DNA of 64,000 nt from Spironucleus salmonicida (GCF_000497125.1 NC_090603.1:62001-126000); one strand, 5' to 3'. Positions 7,438-60,658 are shown, counted from the stretch's first letter. Notes: generated by a model not told the origin, from the sequence alone. Translations and numbers: made by a program.

Positions 7438-10400
7438 TCACATCCTAACCAGTGTAATTGCTTCGTGCTGATCCTGACCTATCTGGACGACATTCCTGAG
7501 TCCAAACGGTGCTGCCCTCTTCTCAAGCACTTCCTAGTTGTGGTAGCCGCACTGTACCGGCAGAACCTGGCAGCCGTGCAGCTGCTCCAGTCCGAGGTCC
7601 CCGTACCCGTGGAAGGTGAGCACGAAATTGAATGGCATTTCGGCTGCTTCTAATATCAGTGGTAGGTCCACACTCTTACTGAAGCAGATAGCGACGATCA
7701 ATCTGTCATCGATGGTTTTCTGCTACCTCAGGATATCGAAAGCTTCCACAGCTGACCCAATCGAGTCTTCCAGCACCTGGTTCCAAACCGCAGACTGGCT
7801 AAATCTTTGCACCCCGTTGTTGAAATCGTGTAGCGCAAAGTCAAAGGTGGGCGTCAGGGTCATCATTTCGTGCTTTCCTGGTATTCTACTTATTAACATC
7901 ATCAATTCCTCAGCATTCCTAGTAGCAATACTACCTTAGCGTAGATACTAGCAACCGATATCCCTGCTATCCCCCTGCTGGATAATCAGTTGGATATTCT
8001 GGATAGCAGTCTCCGGTTGTTGCGTCACAATCATCATGAACAAGATGGTGTTCAGGTAGTTTATCAGTACGCTTCGCTTGAATAGCATGGACATGCTGCT
8101 GAACTCGCGCTAGGCCTCCATCGATGTAAGCTGGACCTTGGAGTACGTTTCTATGAACTAGCACATCAGACTATAGCTCAGAACCACGACCACCTCTTTG
8201 TTAAGGGTGGCTGAAGCAGTATACCTCAAATTGTAACTGCCGTCACTTGCGTGTAGATCAACATCTTATCTATGTATGTTAATTTTAAATTCATTCCATC
8301 TATTTTTATTACAACGTGTGCTAATGTCAATGTAATCTACTATTTAGGTAAGACTGCTGAACTAGTAAACTATACTCTTATTGCCGTTCACCTAAATAGC
8401 ATGCTTCTCAACTGCATTAAAATTACAAGCTTGCAATTGGTACTATGTAGTCACATACCATATCTAAGGGCAGATATAAGGGCATATTAGCTGCATCCCG
8501 GCAGACTTCTCACCCATCATAGAATTTAGCAGTTCTACTAGAATAGAATTCTTGTCTAAATATGTTTTTAAGGTTTTTGGGATACCATCCAGTATTGCAC
8601 CCATATCATCACGGTTAGCCAACATGCTGCGCTTGTCGTACTGGGCACTATGCACCAGCGACGGGTGTGGTTGGACGTAACCAAGAATGCTGGCGGCACA
8701 ATTGTAGATAGAGTATCGTTCAGAACCTTAATAGCTGAACTTATTTAGTGAAGACTCATTTATTAAGTTTATATCTGTCCCAACTATTATAACTTAAAAT
8801 GTAGCGGCACGACGAGTCTAAAACAGTTTTGCATGAGTGATGTTTAATCGATTTTCTAACATTTTATTGTTAGTAGTTAGTAATCGCATTTAATCCACAT
8901 ACTGCATGGGGAGAGCTGCTTAGCCTAAATAGCAAATTATTTATTCATTTATAGAATATTACCAAAATCTTGTAGCAACTTCACACTCACCTCTATAATT
9001 ATTGCCATAATTCTTATCTTTATATATACATATATCACTTAAACCAATAAACTAAAATGTCTTCCAGAACAGCGTCTCCACCGCCCTCGGGTCGAACAAA
9101 GAAAGTATGAACCTGAAAAAGTACACGTCGAACTCTTCGTGGTAATTTTTCTAGCCTAAGTAATTTTTCGGTAGTCCTAAGTAAAATTTGTTTTTAAACT
9201 TTTCCCTGTTTTTTACATTCAGAATTTGCGGTGAGTAGACTATAAGCTCATCAAGGATGTCGTATTCCTCAATCTGAAGCTGCAGGTACTCTGTCGCTAT
9301 AAAAACGTACTCCACATCGGTCAGTATTGCTTCGAGCAGGCTGAAGTATATTGTAAGAAAGCGCTGGTTCGCATATATCTGCTTGTATATTTCTGTTTAT
9401 TTATCGTATTTCTGTTTTCTTAACGTTCGTATATTTTTTATAATATTCTACAGTTCCTGGTAGTAATCTAGGTTCAAACTCCTATGTTGTTCTGAGGCAC
9501 TTACTTCGTCTAGTTCCATTTTTACTGCTAAGAGGAAGTCCGTATGCAGAAGCTGCGAAAGCACTCGACAAGCGAAAGTATGTTTTGTATACTTTTTAGC
9601 TTTATACTCATCGGAATACTATTCAAATTGGTCATTTTGTAGAATATTTACTATAGCACAATAATGTTGTCTTCCAATGTTAACCAGCCTCTGTCGGTAA
9701 TCGCTGAAGATCATCTAGCACAGCACTGTGCATTTTACATAATTTTACTTCTGCGATTCTAGACACTCGTCAACTAGCATCAACGGGCGTTTCTTACCCT
9801 AGTGTTTATAATTATATTCCAGCACTTAAGCATCCGTTATGCCGCTGGTATCAACATCACCCTCGTAGATAAAAAATGAGTATTGTTTTAACAAGTCGAA
9901 CTGTTGCTTTATCGAGCTATTAAATTTCAAATGCTTAATAACCCTGATCCCAGATACCCCATTAATTCTGCTTTAGTCTTTATACATATTTTTGATAAAA
10001 ATATTCATCTTCCTGTAAAGGTACTATAAATGGTCCAAACTATCCAGCTGAAAGGTACGGAAGTCGCATATATCATTTAGTATCGTTTCTTTGAAATTAT
10101 TCAAATCCTGCAGCTCGAAAGTATTTTGGTATAATGTCTCCAGTTACGAGTGGAATGACCCAGTTTTGTAGTAATATAGCGGCTGGTCCTCAGAGCCTTC
10201 TTTGTTAACCAACATTGGAGAATTTCCCATCAGGAGGTGGAAAAAATACTGCGTGTACAAGGCTACACTTTTCCCAGACTTGGAACTCTGGTTTATGACA
10301 GCGTTCGTAAGATTCTTATTTATTTCATTTTTAACCAACGAGAATAATGCAAAATATTCTGCCTTGAAGAGGTAGGACACGTGGCAGAGCTGCTGGAACA

Positions 10401-11214
10401 TGAACAGGCAGATCCCGGTGCCGAGAAAGTGGAAGGGGAGCTGGAACAGGTTGATAAGGTCAAACTTATCCAGCTATGGTTTTTCTTTTTCTGTGAATGA
10501 CTCTCCATTGTAAATCTTATTCGATACCTCAAATATCTTTCTAAGCAAAACCAATTTATAGCTATACACATTTGTTGCGCTTTTATTCTTCTTTAATTCT
10601 GTAAACTAAGTATCATACAACCTGAATGCCGACTAGCCAAAAATCAATGGTAGAATTAGAGGATACTTACCTTCTGATTGGTATTTAATAGCTGCTAGCT
10701 ATAATAATACCTGATTTTCATGAAAATTTAAATCATCTATAAATTCAGGTTAGAGAAGCTATTCCGTGTCAAAACTACTGTAAAAAGAAAAGTACTGCAA
10801 ATCATAATCTTCGATGATCTTTGCAAATTTAGCAAAAGAAGGTTTTCGTGTGGAGTTTGTCGAAAGCACCCTAAGTCCCATCTGCGCTGCGACAAGACCG
10901 ATATTGTCCCAAAATTATGGATCTTGCGATTTAATTATCTCTTCAAACTGTGATATCTAAAACTGAACATTCTGAGCAATTTTCCCCAGCTACTTGTAGA
11001 GCAGGACTACCTAGACCGCGCACAGTTGCTCCTTGGTGGTAATAGCTGATCTGAGTATGTGCCTGCAACTCATGTCCAACTGCCTGGACTATCTGATCTC
11101 GCTGCCTTCTATGGTAAACGTTATCATCGCCTAGGTATTTCTTTTGACTTTGACTTTTCCATCACGAATCGCGTATTGGTGCACAGTGAAGTCTACTGAT
11201 ATTAGATTTGTCAT
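7438..11214 (-). CDS. Large (~1258 aa) protein with divergent copine-like C-terminus (C2-like plus VWA-like)
   Basis: Single frame free of TGA from ATG 11214, joining ORFs 10144-10401, 8464-8655 and 7723-7905. EAAEMPFNFVLTFHGYGDLGLEQLHG and LRNVVQI resemble copine VWA motifs (LPMSIIIVGVG..F..ME.LDG, RDIVQF). The ORF is better supported than the copine call. Confidence 0.7.
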
Positions 11215-11399
11215 TTAGAGTAAAATCCGTGCAATTAAATATGTTAGGCAATAAGTAATTGCAAGTTTAACTATATAGCATATAAACTGGTAGTATTGTA
11301 TATAATACTGTATTTTAAGAGATATTAAAATTTTTAAGCAAAGTCTCTATTGGCGTGGCACTGTAGGCAGATTGGCATGCTACCCGTCCTTCAGCGCAA

Positions 11400-11945
11400 G
11401 CCAATTATAATATTTATTGTGCATCCTGTATATATTTCCTGACATAGTGATCTGCCTCTCCTTGCGTTGTATGGTAGAGGTGAGGATCCAGCTCTCGTAC
11501 ACTGGGAAATGCATCACTCCCTCCGCTACGTCCGCGGCATCATATATCAATAACATAACACTCTGGACACCGTTATCAGGAAGTTCGCAGAATTTTGTTT
11601 ATGAAACTTCTGTACTATAGACCTTCCACCCCCTTAGACCTCAACCAATAATTATGGAAAAAAGCAAATTGCACGAAACTAGCCCTCGTAGCAGCCACTC
11701 ATGGTATAACCTTCCAAGATGTATATGTTTACCTTTCCAATAAATTTCTGGCGATGCACTCAAATGGTGCGCCAGCGCTAAAATATCACGATGCTATGCT
11801 TCTATATTACCATAATGGTAAAATTGATTCTATCGAGCATACTATCACCTTCCTGTCCATATAATAGTATCATCATGATAGTTCTTTCAGCATTCCGATT
11901 TAGCACCGTATCCCATTTCAGCTGGCATTCTTTCCAATAATATAT
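11400..11945 (-). pseudogene. Degraded actin/actin-related protein fragment
   Basis: One frame (11820-11401) reads EAQHRDILAL...W...LLFS..*..TEVSQTKF...VQSVMLLIY...DVAEGVMHFPVYESWILTSTIQR, collinear with actin EAQSKRGILTL, VLLT, IQAVLSLY and [24 protein letters not shown]. Internal TGA at 11641-11643; 5' part frameshifted. Confidence 0.6.
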
Positions 11946-14183: not shown

Positions 14184-15155
14184 TCATTCCACCAACTCCT
14201 AACCATCAACGAAAGCTTGAAAATCAAACAGATACCCAAACTGCTCTCTGTTTTAGACCGCCTGTGGGCTTCTGGAAACACGCAATTCGTCGACAATTTC
14301 GTAAACTCTTCGATTCCAATTCTAAATCAATTTTCCACTTCTTTTTTCTCTCAAAATTTCAAAACAGGCTGCGAAAGTCGCTGCTCTGCCAATTCCAGCA
14401 GAGCAATGGACGAGCAGTTTCTTGTTAAGAAATTGGCACGTCAAATCGTACATTTTCTGCAGTGGAATTATTGTGAAATCATCCCACGTCAGTAGTGCAT
14501 GCAGTAGAATATTTTTCTCATTAATTTTAATATTATATCTAAACTCTTCATTTTCTACATCCGAAATAAAATTTGATGTTATTATATTATTATTAATATT
14601 TATTTTCTCTCCGCTCCAAAAAACATCCTCTTCACAAATTTCAAAGTCTTTTTCTACGCCAAAAACCGGCTTTTTAGACTCCTTTTTACATATTTCCATT
14701 TTTTCGTACAATAGTGCTTAATCTTCGATCCATTTAGGCTCGTTTTCCGCTAGAGGCCACCACCTTTAGGCCTTCTAAATATTGTTTTCTGTGAATTTTG
14801 TAAGCATCAAAATTACGTCTGGTGAATTTTCTGATATAGTTTCCACGAAATTATTGAAGGATTTTGGCGCGCAGCCTACTATTATATCATTGTAAAGGTT
14901 TCCGTATGGAAGCGTTGATTCGTAGACTGATAGTTCTGGATAGCGTTCTTTCGGGTTGCTCTGGATCAGATTCTGGCGATTTTTTTATAAAGTGTGCATG
15001 TAGGTATCAAAAAGGAGCAAAAACTCGTCTTTCGAAGTCGGCGATGGCCTAGGGTACTAAGGTTTTAGTAAAGATCTTGGGGAGAGTTCCGGCAGTGGAA
15101 ACTTATCCGGCAACAACGCTGGAAGCCTTAGTCGGTTTAGAGGAGATTTATTCAT
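14184..15155 (-). CDS. Classical protein-tyrosine phosphatase (~323 aa)
   Basis: VILMLTKFTE...WWP, WDD in place of the WPD loop, catalytic VHCSAGIGRAATF, Q-loop AVQNREQF (first Q is a TAA codon). Confidence 0.92.
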
Positions 15156-17663: not shown

Positions 17664-20600
17664 ATGATCTTAATTTATGGACTAATTTTTTTGTCATCTG
17701 TTGACGATTTTAATCAGCTCAATAAGCTACCAGGTGAAAGTTTTATTCTATAAAAGGATATTTCAATTCAGATTTCGAAAGAATCCCTAGTAAATTAATT
17801 CAGCGGAGCCTTATCTGGCGCCAGACGTAATATTAAGTTCACTAATATGAAAGGAGGTTATTTATTCATCGAATCCTTATCAGGATCGATTAGTAACATA
17901 TTTATTCTAGTAGAATCAGATTTAGAGAACTCGTTTATGCTAATTTAAAAGTTACAGGGAGCTTTAATTTATGATTGTTAATTTCGAATCCAAAGCGATT
18001 AAATAAACCATAACGCCGATATTACCTATTTTGAGTCAATAGTAAACTCGCAATTCTTAAGATGCAAGTATACGTGCTCCTGCCATACTATTGTTAATAA
18101 ATATAAAGTATTCGGGATTTCAAGCACAATAGATAGTCTTACGGCGAAGTCCTTAGAAGTAGAATTGCTTATTACCAACGCTGTATAAGTCATTGGTCTC
18201 TGCAAAATACTAAACTCCTAATTCCCTGTTTCCGTTAGTTTTAATGTTTTTGATATCGAAGAATTGTACGGGATAGCAATTTCGAGCCCAGTAGCCTTAA
18301 AAGACATACAAATTAGCATTTCTGGCAGAGAAACTGGTTTAGTTTACGGTATTGCAGAAGCTGTCGTAGGTTTATCATAGTCTTAACTTTATATTCAAAT
18401 GTCGTACAATAAGCCTGCCTCGGCCGCGTAAGTTTTTGGAATTTGTAGATAAATGTAGGGAAACTTAAAGTAGCTCTAAATTTCAATAAGCATTGCCTCA
18501 TTTTCTATTACCTAAGCAAAAATTCATTAACTAGCGTATGATATTAAAGAAAAATCTTAAATTTCTAACATTGCTATTCAATCATATTATTCTGCATTGT
18601 AAAATCCATTGTAAGTCATTTTATTATCAGAAAGTAATGCATAGAATATTAAAATACTTTTTATTTCCATTAACGCGACAATTAAATTGGACTAATGTAA
18701 ATTATTTAAAGTTGTATACTTTAACGGTGATCTAGAGAATGTTTAACTATCAATGGCCAATTTTAATTTGACAATAAGTGGTGGATCCAAAGGCATGGTT
18801 CAAAGCTTGGGTATTGGCTAAAAAATTATAGATAGTTAATTTACAAATATATCACTAATATAGGATATACATTTATCAGAGTTGTTATCAGTGATTTAGT
18901 ATTATCCAGTAGGATAATAAGTAAATAACCTTTAAATTGCCAATGCCTCATTTCGTAATTCTATATTTATAGACTATGGGGTAGAAACTGAAAAAAGCTA
19001 CATACATGGGGTTGCTAAAGCTATTATCAGGAGTTAATTATAGAATATTATTGTTTAAAACTTAATTTAAATAAGAAACTTACCCATCAATGAATTTTAA
19101 GGCCTATCGGACAGCATTAATGAAATACACGTTAGTTTTTTGGTACTTTGTGGATCTGTAAGTATCGCAGAAAAAACATCTATAAGTGGAATTTCAAAAA
19201 CCGGATAGAATTCAGAATTTAATGATGTCTTAATAAACTTCCTAATAAATAGCCCATAAAGTTCAAGCTGTAATATACTATTCGAAAACGCAGTAAGTAA
19301 TACACTAACAAATATAGTTGATTAGATATTTTCAACTCGGTGTGCAGGTGAATCCACTTATACATCAGATACCAGTAATACAATGACTAATATTTTCATA
19401 ATGAGTGGCACAGGAAAGTAGAATGTAGTATATACAGTAAGTTAATCCAAAATGAGTTCCAGTAGTGATATGGCTGTACTTCTAGCTTCCAATAATTGGG
19501 TTATCGATACTACTAATAATAAAATGATACACTTGAAGAACTTTTTTACAGTAAGTAGTTCTGGGGACGTGGAAGATGTGGTTGCAGAAATCCCTCCATT
19601 CACACAATAACGCATAGCAATCTCTTCAATAATCAATATCAAAAACCCAGAAAACCTGTGCTTTGATAGATGTTAAGGGATTTTCGACGGCAACTCTTTA
19701 ATCTGCAATGTAGAATTTTCTGGCTAATTATGCCAAGAATTCGTCTGTCCTATAGACTTCTGCAAAGATGGAGCAAAATGCCACTAATCAAACGGCTGTG
19801 AGTGTCCGTAGGGCAAGACTGGAACCTAGTGCGAAATCGATAATTGCGAGTTTTGTTTCGGTGGACCTAATAAATGTGAGGAAATATAGAATGTTTTGAC
19901 ATGTAAAAACGACCAATCAGCCAACTGTTACCACGGTAAGGTTACCAATAATTTATGCGTTTGTTCCAGCGGTTATGAAAGCATTAACACTATTTGCGAT
20001 ACTTTCGAATGCAAGAACTCCTTAGATTGCAATGATGGTTTGTGCATAAATGGGTTGTGTCACTGCTTTAGTATGTTCGGTGGGATTAGTTGCCAATTTT
20101 GCAATATTCGAGGGCAGTTAGGATGCAAAACCACCTGCTTGAAAGATAGCTGTGCAAATGGTGCTGGCTGTGTTTATCTAAGTGGCGCAGCTGGGGACTG
20201 GGAATGCTCTGTCTGCGATTTCGGATGGAAGGCACCGTTTTGCAGCGAGTGTATAGATGGATTTCGAAAAGATGGAAACACTTGCATAAAGAAGTGTGAC
20301 GAATGCCTCGCTGGTGACTGTTATTTTACTGAGCTGTGCACAGGCCCTGTAGAAGATTGCGACATAAAATGCTTTTCCTGTAATCTAGGTATTCTTGGGA
20401 TAAAATGCGATATGTGTCCTGCGGGGGAACATATTTACTAGTATAAATGTTACGCGCTAGAAGACGAAAAGGTGACGAATGGGGTCTGTATAAAGGTTGG
20501 GGGAAGCCTTATTTGCTTATCGTGCTCACAAAATTATATCTTGATAAATGACTTGTGTGTATTTTAGTGCCTGCCAAGCAATTGTATAAATGGCGACTGC

Positions 20601-23600
20601 TAGCCTGATTAAACTTGTGTATGTAGAAGATATGCCCTGGGAAAATATTGCGACTCATGCTAGCCAGGTACTGGTAGCTTTTTGGGGCAATGTCTTGTGT
20701 TATGTAATACATGTAATGGTGACTGCTACTACGAAAATGATGAGATTATATGTTCTTCATGTAATGATAACTTTTAAGGCCCACCATGTTAAGGCTGCTG
20801 GGAAGGGTACATAAATATAGGTGCATAATGTCTAGAGATTTGCTAAAAGTGTCACGGCGATAGATGTTATATAGACGAAATTGGTAATTATAAATGTTTA
20901 GGATTTTGTGATGAAGGATATATTTCAGATGGATGCTTTACGTGTGACACTATAAACGGGTACGAAAATGCACTAGATGGATGCTATAAACCGTGTAATA
21001 CCTGTCCAGAAGGTACTTGTTTCCATACTTTCTAGGGCATTCTCTGCTCTAGTTGCAACGGAGGGCTTACTGGTCAACAATGCAATATTTGTTTGGAAGG
21101 GTTTGTTTTTGCCAAAAGCTCTTGTCGCAAGTAAGTAACCGAAGATGATTGTTATCTGGACAGTACAGGAACTGTTGTATGTGTTTCTTGTATACCAGGA
21201 AAGATATTAGTAAACTAAAAATGCATGATAAGGTGTGTTCTCCCGGAATGCGCAGGCGAATGCTTCCAAGATGGTCTGTCGTACTTCTGCGATAGTTGTC
21301 ATCCATAGTTCATTCACCATGAAAGAAAGTGCTACCCACAAGTAATTAATCCTAATGGGTTGTGTTTTTAATTAAATAATGTACTTATTTGTGATTGCTA
21401 TCGGGGCTACACTGGACCTACGTGCGGTGAGTGCAAGGAACTAGAGCAAGATGGCAGTTGTTATTATCGAAATGATATTTCTACTGGGATATGCTACAAT
21501 AATGCAGCTATTCCGTTAGATACTTTCTGTAAAGAATGTTAATATAACTATGCAATGCCTTTGTGTGTAAACTGCGCATGGGGGTACGATCTTGATGTAA
21601 AAAATTAGTGTAGTCTTTGTGATGTGGGATTCATCAGCTCCAACACTCTTCCTCCTAATGAAAAGGCACTAATAGGAGCTGATAAGTGTCTGATGAAGTG
21701 TTAAAGCTGTATTTAAGGCAACTGCTTCTACACTGCTGATACCATTTAATGTGTGGCGTGTTAGGTGGGGTACAATATTGCTGGTAACTGCTTTTAGTGC
21801 TAGCATGAGTTCGTAATATATGGGAGATATTGTTTGAGAGCCGAATCAGATTCCTGCGGCAAAGAAAATAGTGGAGAGGATTACTGCCATACCTGTGGGC
21901 CATTACACGAATCGTTCAACTGCTCTAAATGTTCCGTAGAGGATACCTTTGGAACAGAATGCAAATAGCACGCCGTAATTTTCCCTGGAGACTGCTACTA
22001 AGATGCGTCAATAGCCACTTGCACAGACCGCACATGTCTCAGCTACGATTTAAGCTAACACCAGTGTATTATATGCCAACCCGATAGGTAGAATATTCTT
22101 GGTCAGTGTGCCAAAAACACTATCCCACAAAATGACATATTCCGCGGTAGCTGCGTTAGTATTCAAGATACATTTTAGTGCTAAGCATGCTAAGTTGGCT
22201 GGTCCGGAGTTTTTTGCTAGAACTGTGCTAAAGGTTTTATCACTTGTGAATGCGGGACAGAATCTTTTAAACGCTGTTGCTGCCCTCTGCTAACAGACGA
22301 AAACGGTGTATGCTTCAGAAGCTAATTAGGCGAGGTTTTGTGCTATTACTGTGGGTCTAATTACAAGCTGGTATCTCAGAAATGCATTAAACTAGAGTCT
22401 GGAACTGGTCGGTTGCTGCTCATGATAATACTTCCTATGGTAGTTTGTTTTTTCTTGCTTCTTATTCTGGTATTTGCGTTAAATATATCAAGAAGCAAAA
22501 AAAGAAGGATAAAAGCTTATATTAGACGGAGAACTAAGTGTATTGGACCTCACCTATTATTCGTACTTCTCTCACAGGCTCTTGCCATAATTATAGCCAT
22601 TTAGGACGTATATATAGACAATTTCTTTATGCAAATTTCAGTCAACATATTTTCAATGATACCATTCATTCTTATGTTATTCTTGTTCGCAGCGCCTACA
22701 TATACTCGTTTCTTTTATAATCTGCCGTCTCACTTTTTCCTGTTCATTCTGTCGGCTATGCTTGAACTATCTTTTCATTTCGTATAGTATCAAGCCGTGA
22801 CAGAGGTATCGTAGGATTTTGGGGAACAAATTTATAAGCTAGCAAGTCCCCTTGTAACGTTATTTATGTGCATATTTTTAGCTGGATTCCGATTCAAATC
22901 ACAATAAAAATTAGCAGTATTCATTGCTATCGCACTGCCAATTTTTGCCTAGGTGATGTATGCCATATAAGATTCTTAGGCTTCTGGATACTTCTCTGAA
23001 TCTTCAGCCTGGAACATTATTTTTGGTTAGATGATGGTAAATCTGGCTATTCTGCTTAACGGCGCTCAATTTTATCTATTTGATCTTATTCTAGGGAAAT
23101 ATGGGGAGATTGGAGCAATTGGTCGATTATCGTTAGCATCATTTTTATTGAATACTACCGTGGGATTGCTAAACCCGGGGGAAATTATAAATTCTATACG
23201 ACAATATGACATCTTTTTCTCAAGTTTGTGCACGTAAATTTTCTTTAACGTGATAAATGTTGTGGTTATGATGCATATCTCGGCAGTAGAATTTGGTATC
23301 AATCTAATTTCGTCAGCAATTTGGGCATAGTTTATTACTGCTGTTGGCGATTACTAAATCGCTAGAAACAATAGCTATACAATATCGCCGCTGGCTATTA
23401 TATTATAATCTATAGCGCTAGTTATTGTATTCTTCAGCTTACTGTATTTTAACATTCGAGGCTCCTACTGGCATCACCGTGATAATACAAAACTATCTGA
23501 AGGTCCTGTAGTAATAACTGGAGTTAAAGCATACTTTGAAGCGCGTAAAGACCATAAGTAATTCCTAACTGGTGTAACTAGAAATAAATTATATGAAAAA

Positions 23601-23921
23601 TTTATCCCAACTACTAATAATTAATTACTAAAAGATATGTAGATTAACTTAACAACAATGAAACATAGAAACGAGTATGCTAGTACAGATTAATTATTAC
23701 CATAAACTATACCTAAAAGTACAGAAGATTATATAAACTATACCCCAAGAAGTTAAGTATTGTATATCAAATAATATAATAACTAAATTACAAAGCTCCC
23801 GACAAAGACACTTAATATTCAAATACCTTAACTTTAATTAGCAACTGAGAATATTTTATAAGTTTAAGTTAGACTTGACACAAAATTAAACAATATTTAA
23901 GATATTCAAACTCCTAAGTGA
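17664..23921 (+). CDS. ~2085-aa membrane protein: signal peptide, Cys-poor ectodomain, EGF/laminin-like Cys-rich repeats, TM, SLC35F/DMT-like multi-TM domain, cytoplasmic tail
   Basis: One frame from ATG 17664 (MILIYGLIFLSS) to AAG TGA, containing ORFs 19896-20441, 22338-22604 and 23031-23237. EGF motifs (CECPQGKTGTQCE, CVCSSGYE, CHCFSMFGGISC). About 10-11 hydrophobic segments at 22410-23455. Confidence 0.88.
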
Positions 23922-29558: not shown

Positions 29559-32085
29559 ACTGTTAAGCGCCGGAAGCCGAATATTCTTATCGGTGGCCTA
29601 CTCATCTAAGGTAAATCCGTTGCATGCATTCAATTAGCATCCCTAGAGTCGCGCAAATCCCACCTACCCTTCGCACCACTGGCATGCCTTTACCATTTAT
29701 TTGGGCGCCAGCCTTCTGAGAGGTAGCGCTGGATCAAAAATATACGCGTGCTCCGCCATGGGCTTCTATAAGACCCTGCTAATATGCGCCTGAGGTTCCC
29801 GGCGCACGCCTACTGCCCCATCTTGCCACCCCTAATGCCACCAGCCCCAGCTACTAGTCCCATCGATGCTTCTAGGCGCAGCGTGCCTCGGACTTCAACT
29901 GCGTGTTTAGCCGCTTTGCTACTTTGGGTGGCTGTTTGCTGCACACAGTAAGGAGGAGTGCTGCCATATGGCCCAAACTATGGCGGCAGGATTCCGGTCC
30001 AGATCCCTGATGCACTCGCTCCGTATTCCGATATTACCAGACCTGGGTGCGCTGCCTACCACACTCAGGGATAGCGCTAGAAGCTAGAGCCTATTTCGAA
30101 GTATCGCAGCGATTGCCGGCTCCCGCTCGTTAAATAAGTTTGCTGAATGTGAAATTATCAGCCCAGCCAATTTTGAATTTTGCATCCCTTGCCCGCCAGA
30201 CCTGCCCATGCACATTCACACCTACCACCCACCAACAATTTTTCATTCTCACTCTGCCGCCACTTCCCCACCCAGCTCATCCTGTACCTTAAACCTCCTA
30301 ACTCATCACACACCAATAAACTTTACCAGATATACCAAATACTATCACTTCGAGACTTTGCTCCAAAGGCTGTCGTCGTCTACTTAAAGCTAGAGATTCT
30401 CCTTTTTCACCTCCAAATCGCCCTAGACCGAACGCTGTGCCTTCCGCTTCCTCGCGACCGCAAATGCTATAGCGCCACCAATGAGCCCTACAAGCAGAAC
30501 CAACCCTACAACGATTCCGGCGATTGACCCGCCGCTCATCCTCTATACCTGCTGCGCGCAGAGACCGTCGACCATTTCGGCCCCGTCTTGGCATGCGTAG
30601 CAAAGGTCTTAATCCTAGCAACTTTTGCAGTTCTGGCCGCAGGGTGCGCAGACCCCTCTGCTACTGAAATGGCCTTTTGCGCACTAACGGCATGTGCTGG
30701 AATCTGTGCAAGTAGCGCAGCCCTTTAGACAGCTTCTGCAGGTATTTCCTGTAGATTTCATCTCGCAAAATGATCCGGACTCGCACTACTTCGACTATGC
30801 GCAAATTTACTTAACGCAGGTTTAGTTGCTCAGCATGTAGCCATCTATGCAGGCGGTGCAGGACTTGATATCGGAGCAGGCGGAGCAGCCCTCAACGCAG
30901 GTCTCGCACGTGCTTATCCAGGGGTAATACAAGCAGAATTTGCCGCTTGGGCAGGGCTTGGATTTGGAGCTAGGGCTAGAGCAGTCGTGGGGACCCTGTT
31001 TTTGGCAAATATTACCGTCCATCTAATATCCATTGCCGCACTTCGTGCACTTTGTCGGGCTGTCGCATACCCTACACCCGTCGGAGCAGGTGGTGCATAC
31101 ACCGGTTTTGAGGAAATAGTAATCGTAGCACTCGGTGCATTGCTTAGACGAAATACAGGTTTTGCAGTGTTCCGCGCATGACGCGCACTTGCCGTCTTCT
31201 GCCACATAGGGTGCGGTGCATTTAATGCACTTTCCGGAAATGTCAGCCTCGAGACAGTTTTTGGACAAGTGGACGCATTTGTTGCCAGTAGGATCAATAC
31301 CGCAGAATTTTTTATCAGTGCATTTGTTCACGTTGTTACACTCGTTCAATATGCACTTTCCGCTCTGAATGTCGTACCTCTCCTTGCAGAGGCGGCACGT
31401 ATTCTCAGATTTGCAGTCCATGCAGTTATCGCCGCACGAAACGCACATGCCGTTCTTCAAGAAGTTTCCGTCTTGACAAGCGGTACAGGAGCCTTCGGTT
31501 GTGCATTTGCCGCAGTTACTAGGGCACTAAGTGCATTATCCGTCTTTTAGAGCATAAGAGTAGTTGCATTTCGTGCAACTTCCATTACTGCAGGTCTTGC
31601 AACCTATGGGACAAGCTTTACATGCTGTTTTAATGAGTTCGAATCCACCAGAGCAAACAGAGCAATTACTTGAGCTTACGCATTTAGTACAGCCTGTATC
31701 GCATTTATAGCAGTCAGGGTCAACTCCAGTGAAAAATCCTGGACGGCAAATATTGCAATCACCATACTTGTCGCAGTCAATACAGTTATCTGAGCACTTA
31801 TAACAGTAACGTCCTTTAAGTTAATATCCTGAAAGACAACTAGTGCATTCGTAATCGTTATCACATGTTCTGCATCCGGCTTGGCAAAGCTTGCATGTCC
31901 AATTTTAAAGGAAATATCCCTAATTGCAGGTAATGCATTGCGATAGCCCATCTGATAGGCAGCTGGCACAATTATAAGTCTTGCAGCGAAGACACATTTT
32001 ATCTTTACCAGTTGGTGCATAATCTGGGCATACGGTACCGTTGGGGCATTTTTTATCATTACAGATGTATGATGACATTTTATGA
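29559..32085 (+). repeat. Direct segmental duplication, copy A (copy B ~42388-44895)
   Basis: Starts ACTGTTAAGCGCCGGAAGCCGAATATTC in both copies. Near-identical ~0.8 kb noncoding block and gene 3' end, then a more diverged Cys-rich gene body. Confidence 0.95.
30345..32078 (-). CDS. Cysteine-rich membrane protein (VSP/CRMP-like), 577 aa, paralog 1
   Basis: MSSYICNDKKCP..., CXXC repeats throughout, TM SGGSIAGIVVGLVLLVGLIGGAIAFAV, RKRK, short tail, AAG TGA. Confidence 0.92.
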
Positions 32086-33435
32086 AGAAGTGGCAACGTG
32101 ATATTATTATAACTTCAATATAACATAAGTATTTAGTTTCTAGCTGTTTCTTAGTTTCTGGAAAATGTAGTGTGACTTTATAAATACTAATAATCGATCC
32201 ATTTAAATATTCTATAACGATAATTGAATAATTAGAAAACAAAATGCTTTTTTATGACTGTAGAGTAACAACATTTTAGTTTAGTAAGGGAAACTAATTT
32301 ATTAGTTTAGACTTAATGTAGAAGTATTTTTGTTGTCAGTTATAGAACTCAAAATATTTGCACAATACTATATAAATATGTTATTTTTTAAGATATAAAA
32401 AATTATATGTGATAGGGTTATCAAATTATATAACAAGATTATCATAAAGAGAATATATAGTATGAATTATATATAAATACTAAACAAAATGGAATCTTTA
32501 AAATACATCAGCAATTCTAGGATCTACAAGGCCCTCGTGATAATTCAGGATATTATATTGCTGCTACCAATACAAAGCATTTACCATATTCCCATAAGCC
32601 TAACATCACATCTCATGGTTATTCCTATAAAACAATTAATCCCCAACAATGAGGTTATTTGCACTATTTTGTATCCTAATCATTAAGTTGAACTTACCAA
32701 AGTAATTTTCAGCTAATATATATTGAGTTATAGGCCAAGAAATCATGTAGCTCTCTAGGTTAAATATGTCATGACCGGCATGAAGGTTTCATACTATATT
32801 CTTATTGGCATTGTTTGACCAAAATATTAAACCTTGTTATTATCTCTTCGCCGTTGCATGACCAAACCGAGAAACATCATTTTAGTATAATCGACACTTT
32901 ATAAGTTTTAACAAGCAGCAGCTCTTATTTTAAGTATCTTTTACGAAATAATGTCATTCATGATATTTTAAATCAGTAGTAGTTTTTCATTAGGATTAGT
33001 AGCCCAGCATCATCTATACTATCTAAAAATAAGGTATTATCGGTCTATACTACCAACCTGCCATACTCATACGATTTCCAGATAAGTTTTAACAATTTAC
33101 ATTTACTTGTGTAAAATGCACAAGTTTGTATAACAAATTAATAGCTTCGATATTCATATTGAACTTTCACCAACAGTCCCATCCCACATGAAGGCACTCT
33201 TATAGCGTCTTACTTAGCGCCAGACGACTCCAGGGCTTTCCAATTGTGCTAGCAGCTTTCCGGCCGACTAGCCAGAGCCCAGGTGGAGCTTGCCAATTCG
33301 GAGACGGCCAGTTCGCTAAATTACAATTTTAAGCACTTGGCTGATATTCGGGTCGAGATAAAATTCGATACGGTGGAACAGCAAGCGGCAGGCGCTCTCA
33401 CGAGGCAGTCGAACTTTTTAATCTAAATATTGGAC

Positions 33436-34104: not shown

Positions 34105-36849
34105 TTTAAAAAAATAAATATTTTCACATTCCACACCATGTTAACGGTTTAGTTACTATGTAAAATAGATTCTGAACTAACTTAATGAAATCTTTTCGTT
34201 TATTGTTTTTAAAACTCTATTAATTAATTCTTATAAATAAATCTTACATACTTTAGATGAAGTTGATTAGTTCTCTTACAGAATCGTATCTAAAATACTC
34301 ATCGTGTTGTATAGTTTGATGTCACCCTATTTCTTACCCTTAAAACAGTACTCTGATAACGCTACAACTCATTCGACCATGTCATACAATAGTCTATCTG
34401 TTAGTTCTAACGAAATATATCTCGCTGTTAATATTTTACTATAATGCCCAAATTTCGCATTATTACTATCCTCTTCAAACTTTAATAAAGATGAGTGATA
34501 TTATTATAATTGGCTTGACTGAAGTTTACTTTACTTGAGTCAATATTTTTGATCACCTCTTTTGAATATTATTCTACAGTATCTTATTTTTATGGAACTG
34601 GTATCGCTTCTTTATAAGATTTTTTGATTCTCAATCTTTTATTACTGCGTATCTGTTCATTTTATTTATTTAAAAAAATAAGTATTCAAAAAAGTTAATT
34701 TATATTTATTGTTATTGATTTTTTAGAAACCATTTTTATTTTTGTGTTCACTTTAGAAATCGGACGCCTCAGGGTTTCCATTTTATTCATTTTATTTTGT
34801 GTTATCTGAATTAATTGAATTTGATGCCATTCAATTTTATTAATGCAAAAAAATCTTTTTAATTATTGAAATATTATCGAACACTAAAATGTCAATCTTT
34901 ATGGTATCTCTGCAAGATTCATTATTCTTCTTAATTAATGAATTTAATTATATAATTTAGATGATGTCTAAGAGTTTGATTGCAATTATTATTCTAGTCT
35001 TAATAAATAGTATTCAAATTTTAACTCGTAAGATATTTGCTAATCATATTTTAGTTCTTATATTGATTTATATTTATTATTTACGTATTTATGTTTTACT
35101 TTACATTCGATAGCAGAATACATTCTACTTAACTATTTTCTTCGTTGTTTCATATAAGTTTTTTTCTATCGTGTCTGTCATCATTCAACCTTATTAATAT
35201 AAAAATTAATCTTTTTTAAGTATAATAAAGTGGTATTAAACTTTAATGCTCCAAATTTGATGTTATACTTTCACTCATCAAATAGGAAAAAATTCTTGAC
35301 ATGCTTTACCTTCAGATTACCTTAGGGATCATAACCGTTTTTAATTTTTATACAATAGATCAAGCATTTGCTCAGTTTCCTCTGCGTTCCTTACTACTAC
35401 ATTTCTTCTAATTTTTCTCAATCCTAGGGTACCATTATTTTATGATACCGCTCATTTTGAGCCTTTCAGCCCTTACTGATTCAGAATCAATTACGATGCT
35501 AACAGCTTCAGCTCCTGCTTAAAACCGAAGATCCGGTTCAGGTCAATTACGTGATTGCCCTTCTCTAGGGGCTTCATCTGAATATCTAACTTCTTCGCAA
35601 GCCCCAGAGTTAAAATTTCAGCATTTTCTTGCATGAGGGGTACAGAACTTTCGATTTCCGCAGCGATAGTGTGTTATATCACGTAACGGGAATTCTGAGC
35701 GAATCGCTTCACTAGTTCGCGCACTAGGCATGCTGATCCTCTAATATTACGTCGAAAAATGCAAAATTATCTTTAGCCTGGCTAGCGATCGAAGCGGGTA
35801 ATGTAATTCAAAAATTTTAATGATCTTATATATCGAGATAATTACATTTTGAAATATCGGTTTTTCCGTAGAATTTGCTCAGATCAGCCTTGAAAGTGAA
35901 CCTGCAACGTTATTTCTTGCTCAAAATCTCGCTGAAAACGTTTTTGAGCTCCGTCGAAACGACCGCCAAATGCTCGAATTTCTGCACAATCTCGCGAGCG
36001 ATCTGCGCTAACTCGGTCTCGACGTTTTTGAGCCTATCCGCGACATGTTCCAGGACGCCTTCGGACCGCCCTGCTCGATGCATCTCACAGACTCCTCGTT
36101 GAAGCGGCTCTGGAGGTTCGTCCACGAACTATTATAGTATTATAGTATTATAACTATTATAACTTCTAACTCTACTCACCCTACTGCAGTATCACCGAAT
36201 TCGCACCTTTTCGAAGGTCTGAATTTCGCTTTCCGGGCTCGAAACCCCCTCCACGAAGTCGCAAGAATGCGCCGTTTGGGGGCATGATACTGCTTAATCT
36301 GGGAGTGCATGACTCTTAATGTGTTGTTTTGCGCTGACTGAGTTTTTGGTCGAATTTCAGAGGGTTCCGGGTGTATGTTTGGGAGCGGGAAAACGGCGAT
36401 AAGGAAGGGCTTTAAATCACTTCTTTCATAGAATGGACGTAATGCACTTTTCCGGTGTAGCGGCGATCGTTTAGCACTGCTTTTCGAAAATGTGGAGCTT
36501 TCGGTCAATAAGAAGTCGGTAAAGTGAGCAATCTGGTAGGTGTCGTTTGGGGATTATAGCGGAGATTGCGATATCGGATTTTGTGTCCGGGCGATTTCGA
36601 TGAACGGGGCTGGTTGAGGCATGTAGAGTTTTTCAGCTTCTTCGGTTTGGCGAATTCGTCGTTTTTCAGCGAGTTTAGGTAATTGATGTGTGGAATGTGC
36701 ATATAGTCGTAGTTACTCGCGAAATGCAGCGTTTACTGGTGTTTTCCATACTGGAAATGAAGCTGTAGGCCGCTTTTTCGATGGTATCATTTTACGACTT
36801 TTTTGACGATTTGGTTCAGAACGTTCGCGGAGTACTCGAAGTTTTTGAG

Positions 36850-38260
36850 TGTTAAGTTCGCATGAACCGCACTCCTCCCACCTGGTGCATTATGTCCGGC
36901 AGGTAAAGATGCCGCAGGTACGAGTAGGTGAAAAACTCAGCATCGGTGGTCGTGTAGAGGGGGAAGGTTACCGCCCAGCACTCGGTTGATGCAGGGACCG
37001 CGAGCAGTGCCAGTCGCAGTATACGAACCCCATGTGGTCGCCGCAGGAACCGCCGAGCCCGAAGTTTCTTGTGGAGTGTGGAATTTTGTCACTAGGTCTG
37101 CATCTGCGGATTTTAATACCTGGCGCCCGTTCTGGAGGCGCATTTGGCTGAAAGTGTTAATGCGGAACTGGTACTTCGCATCATTCGCCCTGCCTAAGAA
37201 CCACCAGAAGCCGCTGCTGATCTTCCGGTAGTCCGGGAGCAGGTAGAATACGTAGGTGGCCGTACCGTGAATTTGAATAACTAGTAGAGATTAGATGAAT
37301 CGAAATTAACGTCGAACGCTAGGGTGGACTTCGCTCCCTTGCAGGGCTAGAACGGCTTCTGGGTCAGCGACACCAGGTAGTGGATTACTATGTCCTTTGG
37401 GAGTTTCTGCTGCTTGCCGACTTACAGCGCGTATTCTGATACGTTGAACGTGAAGTTTGAACATTGCGGCTCCGGGGTGAAGAGGTTCAAAGTGTTTGGT
37501 GCCGTGCTCTTCAGGATCGTACTCTTCAATTTTGGCTGCTGCTTGAATTTTTCATTTTCTGGTACATCCTGCACCTCCTCAGCGTGGTTGAGCGCGGAAT
37601 CGAAGGTGAGGAAGTCCCAAGGGGCTGCACGGATACCGGGAGCCGCACCTGTATAACTATCGTGTTTGACGGTAGGATACGCCACTGAGGGACAGCAGAT
37701 GCGTCATGGTCTCTTACTGCAACTCTGGCGTGCTCATTTTTAGGATTAATAGAAATTTGCCCCTAATATTATCTAATAGTTGTGCCTCTGAAATGAGCGA
37801 AACGGTGTACGTCAAGCTCACGGTCAGAGCCGGGGTCAGCACGCGGTACACCTGCTGAGGCTGCAGCTGCACGGGTATCTTGCAGGCGATTGGCCTTACT
37901 GGACCAGGAGCGCTGCTGTAGGTGACCTACCTCCACCACAGGCCGCTGGGAAGCGGGCCGGCCAAGATGCTGTTTGGGTACACCTGGAAGGCCGTGGCGT
38001 TTGGTCGCTGTGCGGGAGCACATTGTGGGGAACAGAAATCACTCGTGGAGGACAACCTTGTAGTAGGTAAGGCCCTCGCACAGGAACACCTTCACAGCGT
38101 TCTCGAAGCCGCAGCAGCCAAGGACCGCGCTGTAATAGATCCCGGAGTACTCGCCCAGCAGGTAGTCGAAGAGCCGCCGACCAGGCTGGGTGGGCTGCCG
38201 CGAGCGCAGGTGCTTATCGTACAACGTGAGAATGACCGCATTGGGAGCGGAACGATTCGA
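36850..38260 (-). pseudogene. Frameshifted GC3-rich coding relic of unknown family
   Basis: Successive coding-like segments in different frames (LFDYLLGEYSGIYY.., TAFQVYPNSILAGP.., APWDFLTFDSALNHAEE.., GTATYVFYLLPDYRKISSGFWWF) with no continuous ORF. Confidence 0.5.
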
Positions 38261-38266
38261 AGCGGC

Positions 38267-40321
38267 TCACTCCACCAGCGCCCCGCACAGGACGACCAGC
38301 GGCTCTATCTTCTGCCGGTACACGAACGCCGCCAGCCTCGTTGGCAGCGCCACCGGCTGGGAATCGCCCTCCTGGTACACCATGCTGCCCCGCTGGACGT
38401 ACTGCTGCCCCACCCGGACGGCCAGCTCAATGTCCACACCATGCCTCCGGATGAAGGCCGGGAGCGCGAACTGCTACAGGCTGGCGGCATCCTGCTGCCC
38501 GGAACCCACCCCAATGCAGCTCACCTTCAGATACATGACCGTTCTGACCCTCACCAGCCTGGCTAGCACAGGCAGTTGGTCCGGCGGGATGCAGATGTTG
38601 CGGAGCCGGAGCCGCTCCACGCACGGGGCACCGACCAGGACCAGCCGCTCCAGACGCACCCTATCGAGCTCCAGCATCATGACCGAGGGCTGCAGGTATA
38701 GCTCCAATACCGCGGTGCAGTTCTCAGCCGTTCCGCGCACGATAAACCGCTCGAGCCCGTGTGCTAGCTGCATCACCCTAGCCAAGGAGGTGCTTTCGTT
38801 GGTTACGCCCTCCAGGACTATCTCTCGTAGTTCCGGCAGTGAATCGGCATCGCACTGGAAGTTATTAACGGTACACTTCGTGAGGGTGATGCTCTGCAAA
38901 CTGGGGGAAAAACATATATCGCCCTCTATTCCGTCAAGTACCAGCGTCTCCAGCTATGTCAGCCTGGATATTTATACAGGCCACACTTTATAGATAGATT
39001 AAAAGTAACGGTTATATTTCAACGTCAGCTTCCGCAACCCGTTCGCCCTTCCCAATATTTTATTCAAGGAAGGTTAATCACAGTACACATCGTCGAGGAA
39101 GATCTCTCGTAGGTCCGGCAGCGACTTAACACTGCACTGGAAGTTATTAACGGTACACTTCGTGAGGGTGATGCTCCGCAAACTGGGGGGAAAACAGATA
39201 TCGCCCTCTATTCCGTCAAGTGCCAGCGTCTCCAGCTATTTCAGCCTGGATGTATATAGTGAATGAACTTTATTAGAAGGTACAACGGATTCGTTATATT
39301 TCATCTTCAGACTACGTAACCTGTCAGCCTTTCCCAATATTTTATTCAAGGAAGGTTAATCACAGTACACATCGTCGAGGAAGATCTCTCGTAGGTCCGG
39401 CAGCGACTTAACACTGCACTGGAAGTTATTAACGGTACACTTCGTGAGGGTGATGCTCCGCAAACTGGGGGAAAAACAGATATCGCCCTCTATTCCGTCA
39501 AGTGCCAGCGTCTCCAGCTATTTCAGTCTAGATATTTATGGTGGACACATTTTATAAGCATCGTATAATGAACCGCTATATTTCAACGTCAGACTCTGCA
39601 ACGCATGCGTCCTTTCCAATATTATATCCAAGGATAATTAATCATACTTTATAAGGTCGAGGCAGATATATCGGAGGTCCGGCAGTGAATCGGCATCGCA
39701 CTAGAAGATCGAATCGATGCAATCCGTGAGGGTGACGCTCCGCAGGCTGGGGGGAAAGTAGACACTGCCAGTTATTCCATTGAGAGCTAGCATCTCCAGC
39801 TATCTAAGTCCGGACATATCCGGCGCACTCGCGTAAGGCGTACCGCTACGATTCAGTGTCATGTTCTTCAGCTATTTCGCCCCCTATAGTATGTTGAGCA
39901 GCGGCTGCCAGTTGCTGGCCAATTCGCAGGGTTCTGAAAACTCCTTTGACGTACATGATATGATTACCTCGGTCAGGTTCGGAAGGTCGCGGCCCTGGGG
40001 GTTGCGGCACATAATGGGCGAGTCGACGATGGTGAGCCTGGCGAGGGCGGGGCCGACATCCATCTTGCCGCTCACGCGCTCCAGCCGCAGATCGCGCACG
40101 TTCCCCACGTACCTGAGCGGCTCCGTCCCGTCCATATCGGCGAGGGCCAGGCTGGTCAGAGCATCCAGGCGCACTGCGGCGTCCCACCTGCCGTCGAGCG
40201 AGAGGTGTGCTACGGGGGGATCGGGAAGCTCGGCTGCGGCCGGTATCGTGGTAGTCATGAGGCTCTGGGACTCTGGGGCAGCATCCCCGCTGCGGTCTGC
40301 CGCGCGCGCACCATCTGTCAT
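38267..40321 (-). CDS. Leucine-rich repeat protein (~684 aa) with four 94-aa tandem units
   Basis: LxxLxL motifs (LKQLETLALDGI, PSLRSITLTKC, LPDLREIFLD). Frame joins ORFs 39884-40603 and 38474-38899; ends GAG TGA. Confidence 0.85.
38810..39930. repeat. Intragenic tandem repeat, 282-bp period, ~4 units
   Basis: Anchor CACT(G/A)GAAG recurs at 38853, 39135, 39417 and 39699. Confidence 0.92.
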
Positions 40322-40388
40322 TTTTAGTGCGAAAGGAAAAGGAGTGTAGGCAGCCCCCCTAGCTGCGGCCCGCGCTACCCTGACGCCG

Positions 40389-40699
40389 ATGCGGGCACTC
40401 AATCTGGAGGTGGAGTAGCAGAGCGACGACCAGAATGGATATAACCTGGACAGCTCGTGAGGGAGAGGAACCTGGAGGGGCTGGGGAACGTCGTATAGCC
40501 GGTGAACTGCGTCATGAGCAGCTTCCAGAAAATGCTGGCGATCGTGTGCGGGATCCTCGTGGGGCTCGTGTTCAACGTCCTGGCGCTCCCCTTCGTGCTG
40601 CACAGCAGCATGCCCGGGGAGCTGCGCGTCGGCGTCTTCTGTGGCGTCCTCAGCAGCCTGGTGTTCGCCCTGTTCGTGGGGCTGGCCGGCACTCCGTGA
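40389..40699 (+). CDS. Small 2-TM membrane protein; probable 1-nt frameshift near 40455, or start at 40514
   Basis: GC3-rich hydrophobic ORF MSSFQKMLAIVCGILVGLVFNVLALPFV...VGVFCGVLSSLVFALFVG. Upstream ATG 40389 is in another frame that stops at 40458. Confidence 0.5.
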
Positions 40700-40758
40700 G
40701 CTTCTTTCGTGTCACTCGGGGTCGTCTCCCGCGGCACCTCGTGATAAACAGGAAAACG

Positions 40759-41931: not shown

Positions 41932-42387
41932 TTTGGGGAGTGGGACTTTACTTAAATATAATTATTTTAGTATATATACATGATAAAATTTGTGGTTCTG
42001 AAAATTGGTTCCCAAGGTATATGCACTTATTATCCCTCAAGTATCATTATAAATATTGAAAACTCAGGCTAAAACTAAAATTTCATCTAGTACTCAGAAT
42101 AAAGTGAAAATTTGCATACTAGACACATATATTTATATTCTTCTTATTTTTTGTGGTTCACATTTTGTGGTTCGTTATTTATTTTTATCTATCTACAAGT
42201 AAAACTATTATAGTGTAAGTAGCTCATACTAAAAGTAACTTTTGTTTGCTTTAGTTTTAAAGGCAGCGAGGCATGTTATGATCACATCGCGGTCATAAAA
42301 AATGGCTTTCCACTTTTGAAACTGAAGACTGCCCTAAGTGGCTTTTGGTATTGACTACTTACTGCTGGAGGGTACCTACTGCTTGGC

Positions 42388-46800: not shown

Positions 46801-47353
46801 TTCTTTCGCTTGTTTACAAGGCCAATTTTCTCATAGTATCATATTACGGTTACTTGTACAATATATATTTATATATTCTCACGCTGTGCCATATTATTAG
46901 GGATAATAATATTATTTCTCAGAATAGTGGTACAGTACACATAGGGTACAAAGCGATAAATACTTCAACCAAGCTCTAAAATGCTTGGGAATGCCTGATA
47001 TTAGCTATACATGATTGGTATAATACTAAATGTCGCAGCATTCCAGTGCTAAATTCTAAAGACTATCGTATAACGTGTTTCAATAACGAGACTTCCCTAC
47101 ATCCATAAATTAGGACTGTATAGCGATGATGAAATATTGGTACTAACGCTGCAACTACACACCTCCCTGACCACCTTTGGGAGGATCTAAAGTAAGCAAT
47201 CATCCTGTCCACTCTCGCGCAGAGGCCCATCGCACTCTATAGTAGGAGATCTTTTAAAATATTGCATATGCCTATTTGGCTCGCTGGCCACGGCAATTAT
47301 TATCGAAGGCGGATCTGGATACAGGTAAATATACCGTGCGCTAAAAATGTACA

Positions 47354-47426
47354 GGGCTGGTAGCTCAGTTGGGAGAGCGCATCCCTAGCATGGATGAGGC
47401 CCGGGGTTCAATCCCCCGTTAGTCCA
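47354..47426 (+). tRNA. tRNA-Ala(AGC)
   Basis: GGGCTGG TAGCTCAGTTGGGAGAGC, arm CATCC-CTAGCAT-GGATG, GGTTCAATCC, G3:U70. Confidence 0.92.
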
Positions 47427-49142: not shown

Positions 49143-49215
49143 TGGACTAACGGGGGATTGAACCCCGGGCCTCATCCATGCTAGGGATGCGCTCTCCCAA
49201 CTGAGCTACCAGCCC
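49143..49215 (-). tRNA. tRNA-Ala(AGC)
   Basis: Inverted copy of 47354-47426. Confidence 0.92.
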
Positions 49216-60585: not shown

Positions 60586-60658
60586 TGGACTAACGGGGGA
60601 TTGAACCCCGGGCCTCATCCATGCTAGGGATGCGCTCTCCCAACTGAGCTACCAGCCC
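60586..60658 (-). tRNA. tRNA-Ala(AGC)
   Basis: Inverted identical copy. Confidence 0.92.

Follow-up and report, generated by a model that had tools for sequence, protein, structure and literature searches.

What does a single open frame of 2085 codons in a diplomonad genome encode, if its first three quarters resemble a cysteine-rich surface protein and its last quarter a membrane transporter? This question is raised by positions 17664-23921 of a 64,000-nucleotide stretch of Spironucleus salmonicida DNA (NC_090603.1, 62001-126000), which we call the window and in whose positions all coordinates are given. An initial annotation, made from the DNA alone, had described this frame as a giant EGF/Cys-rich ectodomain fused to an SLC35F-like transporter. 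We examined the frame by translation, profile searches, structure prediction, and comparison with its paralogues. The reading that we favor, at a rough probability of 0.6, is that the gene encodes a surface or endomembrane solute carrier with a predicted drug/metabolite transporter (DMT) fold and a built-in ancillary ectodomain.

The sequence was translated with table 6, in which TAA and TAG are read as Gln and TGA is the only stop. Under this code, 17664..23921 on the plus strand is one open frame of 2085 codons followed by TGA, and 102 TAA or TAG codons in it are read as Gln (67 TAA and 35 TAG, besides 28 CAA and 8 CAG). The frame has no TGA besides the terminal one; over this length, frame 2 contains 26 of them and frame 3 contains 54. 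The TGA-free run from stop to stop around the gene extends over 2169 codons and is the longest of any frame in the window; in 300 shuffles of the region the longest such run averaged 255 codons and did not exceed 456. The ATG at 17664 lies in the context TTTAAAATG, which agrees with the initiator context of S. salmonicida genes, "AAAatg", given in the available text of PMC3916229. An alternative upstream ATG at 17619 would add 15 residues to give 2100, and the public gene model of the identical protein, with 2085 residues, supports the start at 17664. Position 17664 to 23921 is a genuine single gene, and the frame of about 2085 residues in the initial annotation is therefore correct. The gene had also been called invisible in the standard code. 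This applies to its 102 in-frame TAA/TAG codons but not to the databases, since NCBI and UniRef already list the protein, without characterisation, under the name "Transmembrane domain-containing protein" of S. salmonicida.

How is this protein laid out? A signal-like hydrophobic N-terminus covers residues 1-13 (MILIYGLIFLSSV; 17664..17702), with MILIYGLIFLSS as the short hydrophobic stretch, and the paralogues start in a similar way. It is followed by a Cys-poor, variable N-terminal ectodomain (residues 14-660; 17703..19643) and a Cys-rich CXXC/EGF-like region (residues 661-1578; 19644..22397). Residues 1585-1603 (LLMIILPMVVCFFLLLILV; 22416..22472) form a strongly hydrophobic anchor transmembrane helix, whose Kyte-Doolittle value of 3.32 is the highest in the protein. 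The sequence directly after it reads ISRSKKRRIKAYIRRRTK, and the basic stop-transfer cluster as a whole spans residues 1604-1620 (FALNISRSKKRRIKAYI, then RRRTK; 22473..22523), with 6 Lys or Arg in 17 residues. The chain then continues for 482 residues, which include ten further helices in a core with a predicted DMT fold (residues 1621-1933; 22524..23462), supported by an AlphaFold2 model, Foldseek, and the ESM features of a paralogue, and a poorly conserved cytoplasmic tail of about 150 residues rich in Gln, Asn, and Lys (residues 1934-2085; 23463..23918). Hydropathy at a threshold of 1.5 resolves eight hydrophobic regions in the core, two of them broad or weak, with hydrophobic segments reaching residue 1928, while the AlphaFold model has ten long helices, the number expected of a DMT carrier unit. 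The order proposed in the initial annotation, namely a signal-like start, a Cys-poor domain of about 660 residues, a transmembrane helix with a basic stop, some ten further helices, and a tail of about 150 residues, was thus borne out.

The same order of parts, that is, a signal-like start, a Cys-poor domain, a CXXC/EGF-like region, an anchor helix with a basic cluster, ten helices, and a tail, is found at no fewer than 11 paralogous loci of S. salmonicida on four large contigs. Word-indexed protein searches found P0005 to P0009 and a 386-residue fragment spanning the junction (P0003), and a further search of this kind limited to proteins of 649-2000 residues returned one paralogue that was already known. 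The closest relative, P0005, is 93% identical to the window protein over its full length, falls into the same 90% cluster, and is encoded on the same contig of 1,071,966 bp. Every named relative is likewise recorded as a "Transmembrane domain-containing protein" of S. salmonicida. Its gene lies outside the window, within which tblastn with the protein finds only the gene itself. When 1.84 billion representatives were searched exhaustively with a profile, each of the 14 matches at E ≤ 0.001 was a member of this family, and in the long ones (2082, 2101, 2264, 1457, and 2672 residues) the core is C-terminal, after the Cys-rich region and the anchor helix. Longer gene models were obtained from cluster look-ups (P0022, 2308 residues; P0024, 2766; P0029, 2757; P0034, 2100). 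Distant members are represented by four short run-assembly fragments (P0017, P0019, P0020, and P0021), of which P0019 and P0021 cover the end of the Cys-rich region, the anchor helix, and the first core helices. The junction between the Cys-rich and multi-pass parts is kept in every full-length relative found, including all five long matches of the word-indexed search. A pattern scan of JGI metagenome contigs gave 255 pattern matches and no confirmed relative, a weak negative since TAA and TAG are not read as codons there. As an observation apart, P0023 (1564 residues, head and Cys-rich region) and P0014 (1457 residues, Cys-rich region and core) have consecutive accessions on one contig and look like one family member split in two, which may reflect a pseudogene or a break in the annotation.

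What, then, is the ten-helix core? AlphaFold2 was run on a 321-residue core with a 17-row alignment (95-19% identity) and gave a model with a predicted local distance difference test score (pLDDT) of 75.7 and a predicted TM-score of 0.71. A Foldseek search of the PDB with this model returned 14 matches at E ≤ 0.001. All matches listed through rank 30 were DMT transporters, and the ranks up to 38 were more chains of the same entries. They comprise human SLC35B1, PfCRT, LicB, the CMP-sialic acid transporter, Vrg4, the triose-phosphate translocator (TPT), and YddG, with TM-scores of 0.45-0.65 relative to the query and up to 0.71 relative to the target, E-values from 6e-5 to 4e-3, and identities of 9-14%. 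From rank 39 onward the matches are unrelated transporters with TM-scores of about 0.2, except for one more YddG chain at rank 40. Furthermore, the nearest neighbors by ESM features of the core of paralogue P0009, at 0.96-0.97, are UAA, EamA, SLC35F, Nuc_sug_transp, TPT, and CRT-like clusters, and all ten of the best family-bearing matches belong to one clan. Because the Foldseek matches and these separately learned features agree, we regard a DMT fold of the core as highly probable. SLC35F-rich clusters stand at ranks 2, 11, 13, and 16 with a score of 0.96; UAA, EamA, Nuc_sug_transp, TPT, and CRT-like clusters are equally near, and a DMT subfamily is therefore not assignable. The initial annotation had likened the multi-pass part to SLC35F1/F2 and expected SLC35F or EamA profile matches there. 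Its choice of superfamily agrees with the Foldseek and ESM results, and the Foldseek comparison that it suggested came out on the side of a DMT fold, but the narrower assignment was not upheld: neither SLC35F (PF06027) nor EamA nor any other DMT family of Pfam matched the window protein or 13 family members at E ≤ 10.

Some results weigh against our interpretation, and they concern the fold, the ectodomain, and the transcripts. In Pfam, the whole protein matched no family at E ≤ 1 and the transmembrane part none at E ≤ 10; across the 13 family members (E ≤ 10), 16 weak families appeared in single members, none of them DMT. A family profile of the core had no match among PDB sequences at E ≤ 10. 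An hhalign comparison of the core with an alignment of 10 E. coli K-12 EamA-locus frames, the loci being found with PF00892 and at least one frame being apparently wrong, yielded a probability of only 1.2%, with a weak local alignment that kept the register (query 103-221, template 102-215) and was not significant. When the N-terminal and C-terminal halves of the core were compared in the same manner from the family alignment, no similarity was found (probability 0.3%). Such repeat similarity is undetectable in many true DMT proteins too. A first model, from a 5-sequence alignment, had a pLDDT of 43 and was unusable. The ESM result concerns the core of P0009 and not the window protein, and a score of 0.95 is reached by shuffled proteins about once in 100, in a calibration that was not made for parts of proteins. 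The support for the core fold is two machine-learning predictions from a shallow family. On the side of the ectodomain, a BLASTP comparison of the Cys-rich region with the two genes of the window that resemble those for VSPs (variant-specific surface proteins) gave a marginal value (E = 7.6e-4; best of 20 shuffles, 0.03).

These results could be explained if the ten-helix domain had a lineage-specific fold of its own, with AlphaFold and ESM reflecting only a generic prior for ten-helix bundles. The missing profile-level homology, the missing internal-repeat signal, and the shallow alignment, with a failed 5-sequence model and mean pLDDT values of 65.6-75.7 over the five later ones, would all fit. 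Such a prior does not sit well with the Foldseek result, in which the top matches are all DMT proteins aligned over the full length and the scores then fall sharply to those of other multi-pass transporters. Nor does it account readily for the agreement of a separately trained search on one clan at scores that shuffled sequences seldom reach, or for the helix number and the inferred topology with both termini inside, which fit a DMT carrier. We therefore consider a non-DMT fold distinctly improbable.

Could the long frame be an artefact instead, in which a cysteine-rich membrane protein gene and an adjacent multi-pass protein gene are read through, or are joined by the assembly? With TGA as the sole stop, long chance frames are common (one of 555 residues lies on the opposite strand), the anchor helix with its basic cluster resembles the usual C-terminus of a cysteine-rich membrane protein, and no run recorded as RNA was found for the stretch. 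Against this, no fewer than 10 full-length paralogues, some with core identities as low as 25-28%, have the same arrangement without interruption; a complete ten-helix core standing alone was found at no length among the 1.84 billion representatives; and the other frames do not share the freedom from TGA of these 2085 codons. In addition, in two of four runs of one study, for which an RNA origin is only a guess, overlapping contigs together cover 19113-23502, with one piece from each run spanning 21699-23502 and hence the junction; the other two runs gave no matching contigs. The bridging contigs differ from the window by about 2% and diverge from it at 23502, about where the tails of near-identical copies part, so that they most likely derive from such a copy. 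In those assemblies a near-identical copy runs without a break from the Cys-rich region into the core, which does not prove a single transcript. Taking both sides together, we give the artefact explanation hardly any credence.

Does a core of this fold still transport? Conservation is informative here, and it was measured in an alignment of ten full-length paralogues, with identities given relative to the window protein. In the mid-distance paralogues P0006-P0008, the N-domain is 34-38% identical, the Cys-rich region 56-57%, the anchor segment 27-29%, the ten-helix core 76-79%, and the tail 30-39%. The core is thus the best conserved part of the protein, and in the most distant paralogues it is still 25-28% identical. 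Of the 660 N-domain positions, 6 are invariant in all ten; for the Cys-rich region the count is 167 of 918, for the core 28 of 310, and for the tail 1 of 150. The invariant residues of the core include, in its predicted helices, Q1638, Q1647, and D1648 (helix 1), K1725 (helix 4), R1821, N1862 (helix 8), and N1880, S1884, and W1887 (helix 9). The conserved core and its invariant intramembrane polar residues favor a working cavity, while the poor conservation of the tail speaks against a conserved signalling output.

These same data bear on the view that the DMT-fold core no longer transports and serves instead to anchor the protein by several passes, to mediate oligomerisation, or, as a sensor derived from a transporter ("transceptor"), to relay the binding of a solute or of a ligand of the ectodomain to the tail. 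A receptor of this type had been suggested in the initial annotation. It would be in keeping with a core so divergent that no profile recognises a DMT sequence motif in it, with the long cytoplasmic tail, and with the size of the ectodomain, which dominates the protein. An anchor, however, should have less need of invariant polar and charged residues within its helices, which are what a working binding cavity would be expected to have, nor would the core then be expected to be the most conserved part of the family, and the tail on which signalling would depend is the least conserved. Loss of transport is in our judgment unlikely, and a functional carrier is the reading that we retain.

The tail is also where P0005 departs from the window protein, as it is only 50% identical there and 94-96% identical over the rest, which makes the two copies a mosaic. 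Together with the contigs that leave the window sequence at 23502, this suggests a gene conversion or recombination breakpoint at the end of the transporter core.

What kind of ectodomain is joined to this core? The head (residues 1-660) has 0-6 Cys per 100 residues and a repeat of about 26 residues within 149-260. The motif hxG[ILV][ACSG] occurs 8 times in it (shuffles: mean 0.45, maximum 3), and five of these occurrences are spaced by 25-27 residues. No Pfam family matched the head at E ≤ 10, and the search of PDB sequences gave nothing meaningful. By ESM features, the head of the divergent paralogue P0023 is like bacterial GLUG/Peptidase_M26_N repeat regions (0.93-0.94, with only 150-160 shared features), which may point, as a lead and no more, to a beta-solenoid-like binding domain. 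The Cys-rich region (residues 661-1580) contains 138 Cys (12-17 per 100 residues), with 32 CXXC and 7 CXC motifs, and brings the Cys content of the whole protein to 7.3%; 129 of the 138 are invariant in the ten paralogues. Patterns resembling the EGF signatures of PROSITE matched it 6 times at 5 places (500 shuffles: mean 0.45, maximum 3), and some relatives are named "EGF-like domain-containing protein" in UniRef. Pfam EGF, laminin, laminin-EGF, and VSP (PF03302) families had no match in it at E ≤ 10, and among PDB sequences there was one weak match only, to a Cys-rich antifreeze protein (E = 0.003). The "EGF/laminin-like repeats" described in the initial annotation are only partly borne out, by the signature-like patterns and not by Pfam.

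Topology was deduced from charge. By the positive-inside rule, basic segments are cytosolic. The linker from the anchor helix to core helix 1 contains ten Lys or Arg, and basic residues also prevail in the tail, so that the linker and both ends of the core would face the cytosol, the canonical DMT orientation. With the linker in the cytosol, the N-terminal part of about 1570 residues should be extracellular or lumenal, in agreement with its 138 cysteines. We therefore infer an N-in/C-in core and an extracellular or lumenal ectodomain.

On this basis, the gene product would be an 11-pass membrane glycoprotein that is like a cysteine-rich membrane protein extended at its C-terminus by a DMT-fold solute carrier. 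The signal-like segment would direct about 1570 residues to the cell exterior or the lumen of a compartment, exposing the variable Cys-poor head with its repeats on a disulfide-rich CXXC/EGF-like stalk. The anchor helix and basic cluster would bring the chain back to the cytosol, after which the ten-helix core would insert with both ends cytosolic and could carry or exchange a small polar or charged solute by alternating access. The ectodomain might act as a built-in ancillary subunit for adhesion, for binding of a ligand or particle, or for sorting and stability. As the family grew to at least 11 loci, the head diversified, but cysteine scaffold and carrier core stayed constant. The single frame, the conserved order of parts, the gradient of conservation, and the prediction of a DMT fold are results of the analysis; transport activity, location, topology, and what the ectodomain does are what we infer for this protein from its parts.

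How does it compare with known systems? DMT carriers with solved structures (SLC35B1, the CMP-sialic acid transporter SLC35A1, Vrg4, the triose-phosphate translocator, PfCRT, LicB, and YddG) match the predicted ten-helix fold over the whole core, and they share its helix count and inferred topology with both ends cytosolic. The window protein differs from them in its anchor helix, its ectodomain of about 1570 residues, and its tail of about 150 residues, and its identity to them is as low as 9-14%. Some carriers work with a separate single-pass ancillary glycoprotein, as in 4F2hc-LAT1 and basigin-MCT1. In these pairs, too, one helix bears a large glycosylated ectodomain beside a multi-pass carrier, and the resemblance is analogous, not homologous; unlike these pairs, the window protein is one polypeptide, and its predicted fold is DMT rather than APC/LeuT or MFS. 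In polycystin-1 type proteins, 11 helices, of which the C-terminal part is channel-like, come after a giant adhesive ectodomain. They share with the window protein the logic of a huge modular ectodomain joined to a multi-pass domain derived from a transport protein, but neither the folds nor the lineage are related, and the comparison is no more than an analogy.

Close parallels to the N-terminal three quarters are found in the same organism. According to the available text of PMC3916229, cysteine-rich membrane proteins of S. salmonicida (CRMPs) have a transmembrane helix with a basic motif after it, and one tagged member localised to the cell surface. CRMP-1 and CRMP-2 are defined there by at least three CXXC or CXC motifs and a single C-terminal transmembrane helix with a short tail, and CRMP-1 in addition by [KR][KR]X[KR][KR] after the helix. 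As far as the available texts of PMC3916229 and PMC11437800 go, these proteins and the Giardia VSPs share with the window protein a CXXC/CXC-rich ectodomain, a transmembrane helix, and a basic cluster on its cytoplasmic side; CRMP-1 and CRMP-2, like the family described here, are moreover a multigene family in the same genome. The 32 CXXC and 7 CXC motifs of the window protein far exceed the three by which CRMPs are recognised in that text. In contrast to the short tail after the single helix of a CRMP or VSP, about 480 residues including ten helices follow its anchor, and a Cys-poor head of 650 residues is additional at its other end. A basic cluster follows the anchor helix in 10 of 10 paralogues. 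The CRMP-1 motif, as worded in the available text, is absent by eye after the helix of the window protein and, as far as seen, in P0005; a script found the strict form in 1 (P0007) of the 8 paralogues with a correctly picked segment, P0001 and P0005 being mis-picked.

The simplest history would be that a CRMP-type gene was fused 3' to a DMT carrier gene and that the family then expanded. We propose it because a Cys-rich ectodomain, one helix, and a basic cluster are how CRMPs and VSPs end, and we word it conditionally because of the missing Pfam VSP match, the marginal BLASTP value, and the rarity of the strict basic motif. Direct descent of the Cys-rich region from the VSP-like genes of the window was also considered and set aside, as the BLASTP value is too marginal to show it. 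These two single-pass cysteine-rich membrane protein genes, at 30345-32078 and 43165-44886 on the minus strand, encode 577 and 573 residues, match Pfam VSP (PF03302; E = 2e-9 and 6e-10), unlike the window protein (no match at E ≤ 10), and end in a transmembrane helix and ARKRK. They sit in a DNA duplication of about 2.5 kb (29559-32090 and 42388-44898, 89.8% identity).

Is the architecture new? A search of full-text literature found no description, for diplomonads or for other organisms, of a DMT carrier joined with a Cys-rich ectodomain, in line with the initial annotation, which knew of no such fusion. The sequences are public but uncharacterised, and the fusion architecture was not found described in print. 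In discussions of cysteine-rich surface proteins of diplomonads, these usually figure as single-pass coats that serve antigenic variation or redox protection. The available portions of PMC3916229, PMC11437800, and PMC6397501 treat single-pass cysteine-rich proteins only, and a surface-protein survey filter given in PMC11437800, "fewer than 100 residues after the TM" (transmembrane helix), excludes proteins of the present type. The carrier core for its part escapes every sequence profile and is thus missing from transporter inventories. At least 11 genes of this pathogen of farmed salmon form a conserved subfamily in which a predicted solute carrier bears a Cys-rich ectodomain. Should the core transport, it would be an unrecognised branch of the DMT superfamily and a natural single-chain version of the arrangement of ancillary glycoprotein plus carrier. 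A bolder idea, which we think quite unlikely as it stands, is that these proteins are "tethered carriers", in which a DMT transporter is covalently coupled to a diversifying adhesin-like ectodomain, so that contact with a soluble ligand, a prey particle, or the surface of a host would be directly coupled to local solute uptake, export, or signalling. If this were true, the dozen paralogues would equip the parasite with a set of ligand-specific units for transport or sensing.

Elsewhere in the window, neighboring frames include a 1372-residue frame without a Pfam match at 7438-11556 on the minus strand, a protein-tyrosine phosphatase gene at 14184-15155 on the minus strand, and, at 50450-53161 on the plus strand, a gene for a CEP104-like centrosomal/ciliary protein in which the N-terminal and zinc-finger domains were matched. 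The last third of the window contains large direct and inverted segmental repeats (44011-49520 and 57620-64000) that are 99.1-99.8% identical, for example 44011-47933 with 64000-60079 (inverted) and 46176-49520 with 57620-60962 (direct); they could be recent duplications or assembly-sensitive repeats. Positions 36000-42000 form a G + C island with a peak of 0.64 at 40001-42000, the rest of the window ranging from 0.24 to 0.5. Two open reading frames at the peak, 40435-41784 (plus strand; without a Pfam match) and 40759-41931 (minus strand), contain no TAA or TAG codons. These frames are adjoined by a gene at 38267-40321 on the minus strand that encodes a leucine-rich-repeat protein of 684 residues and has internal DNA repeats.

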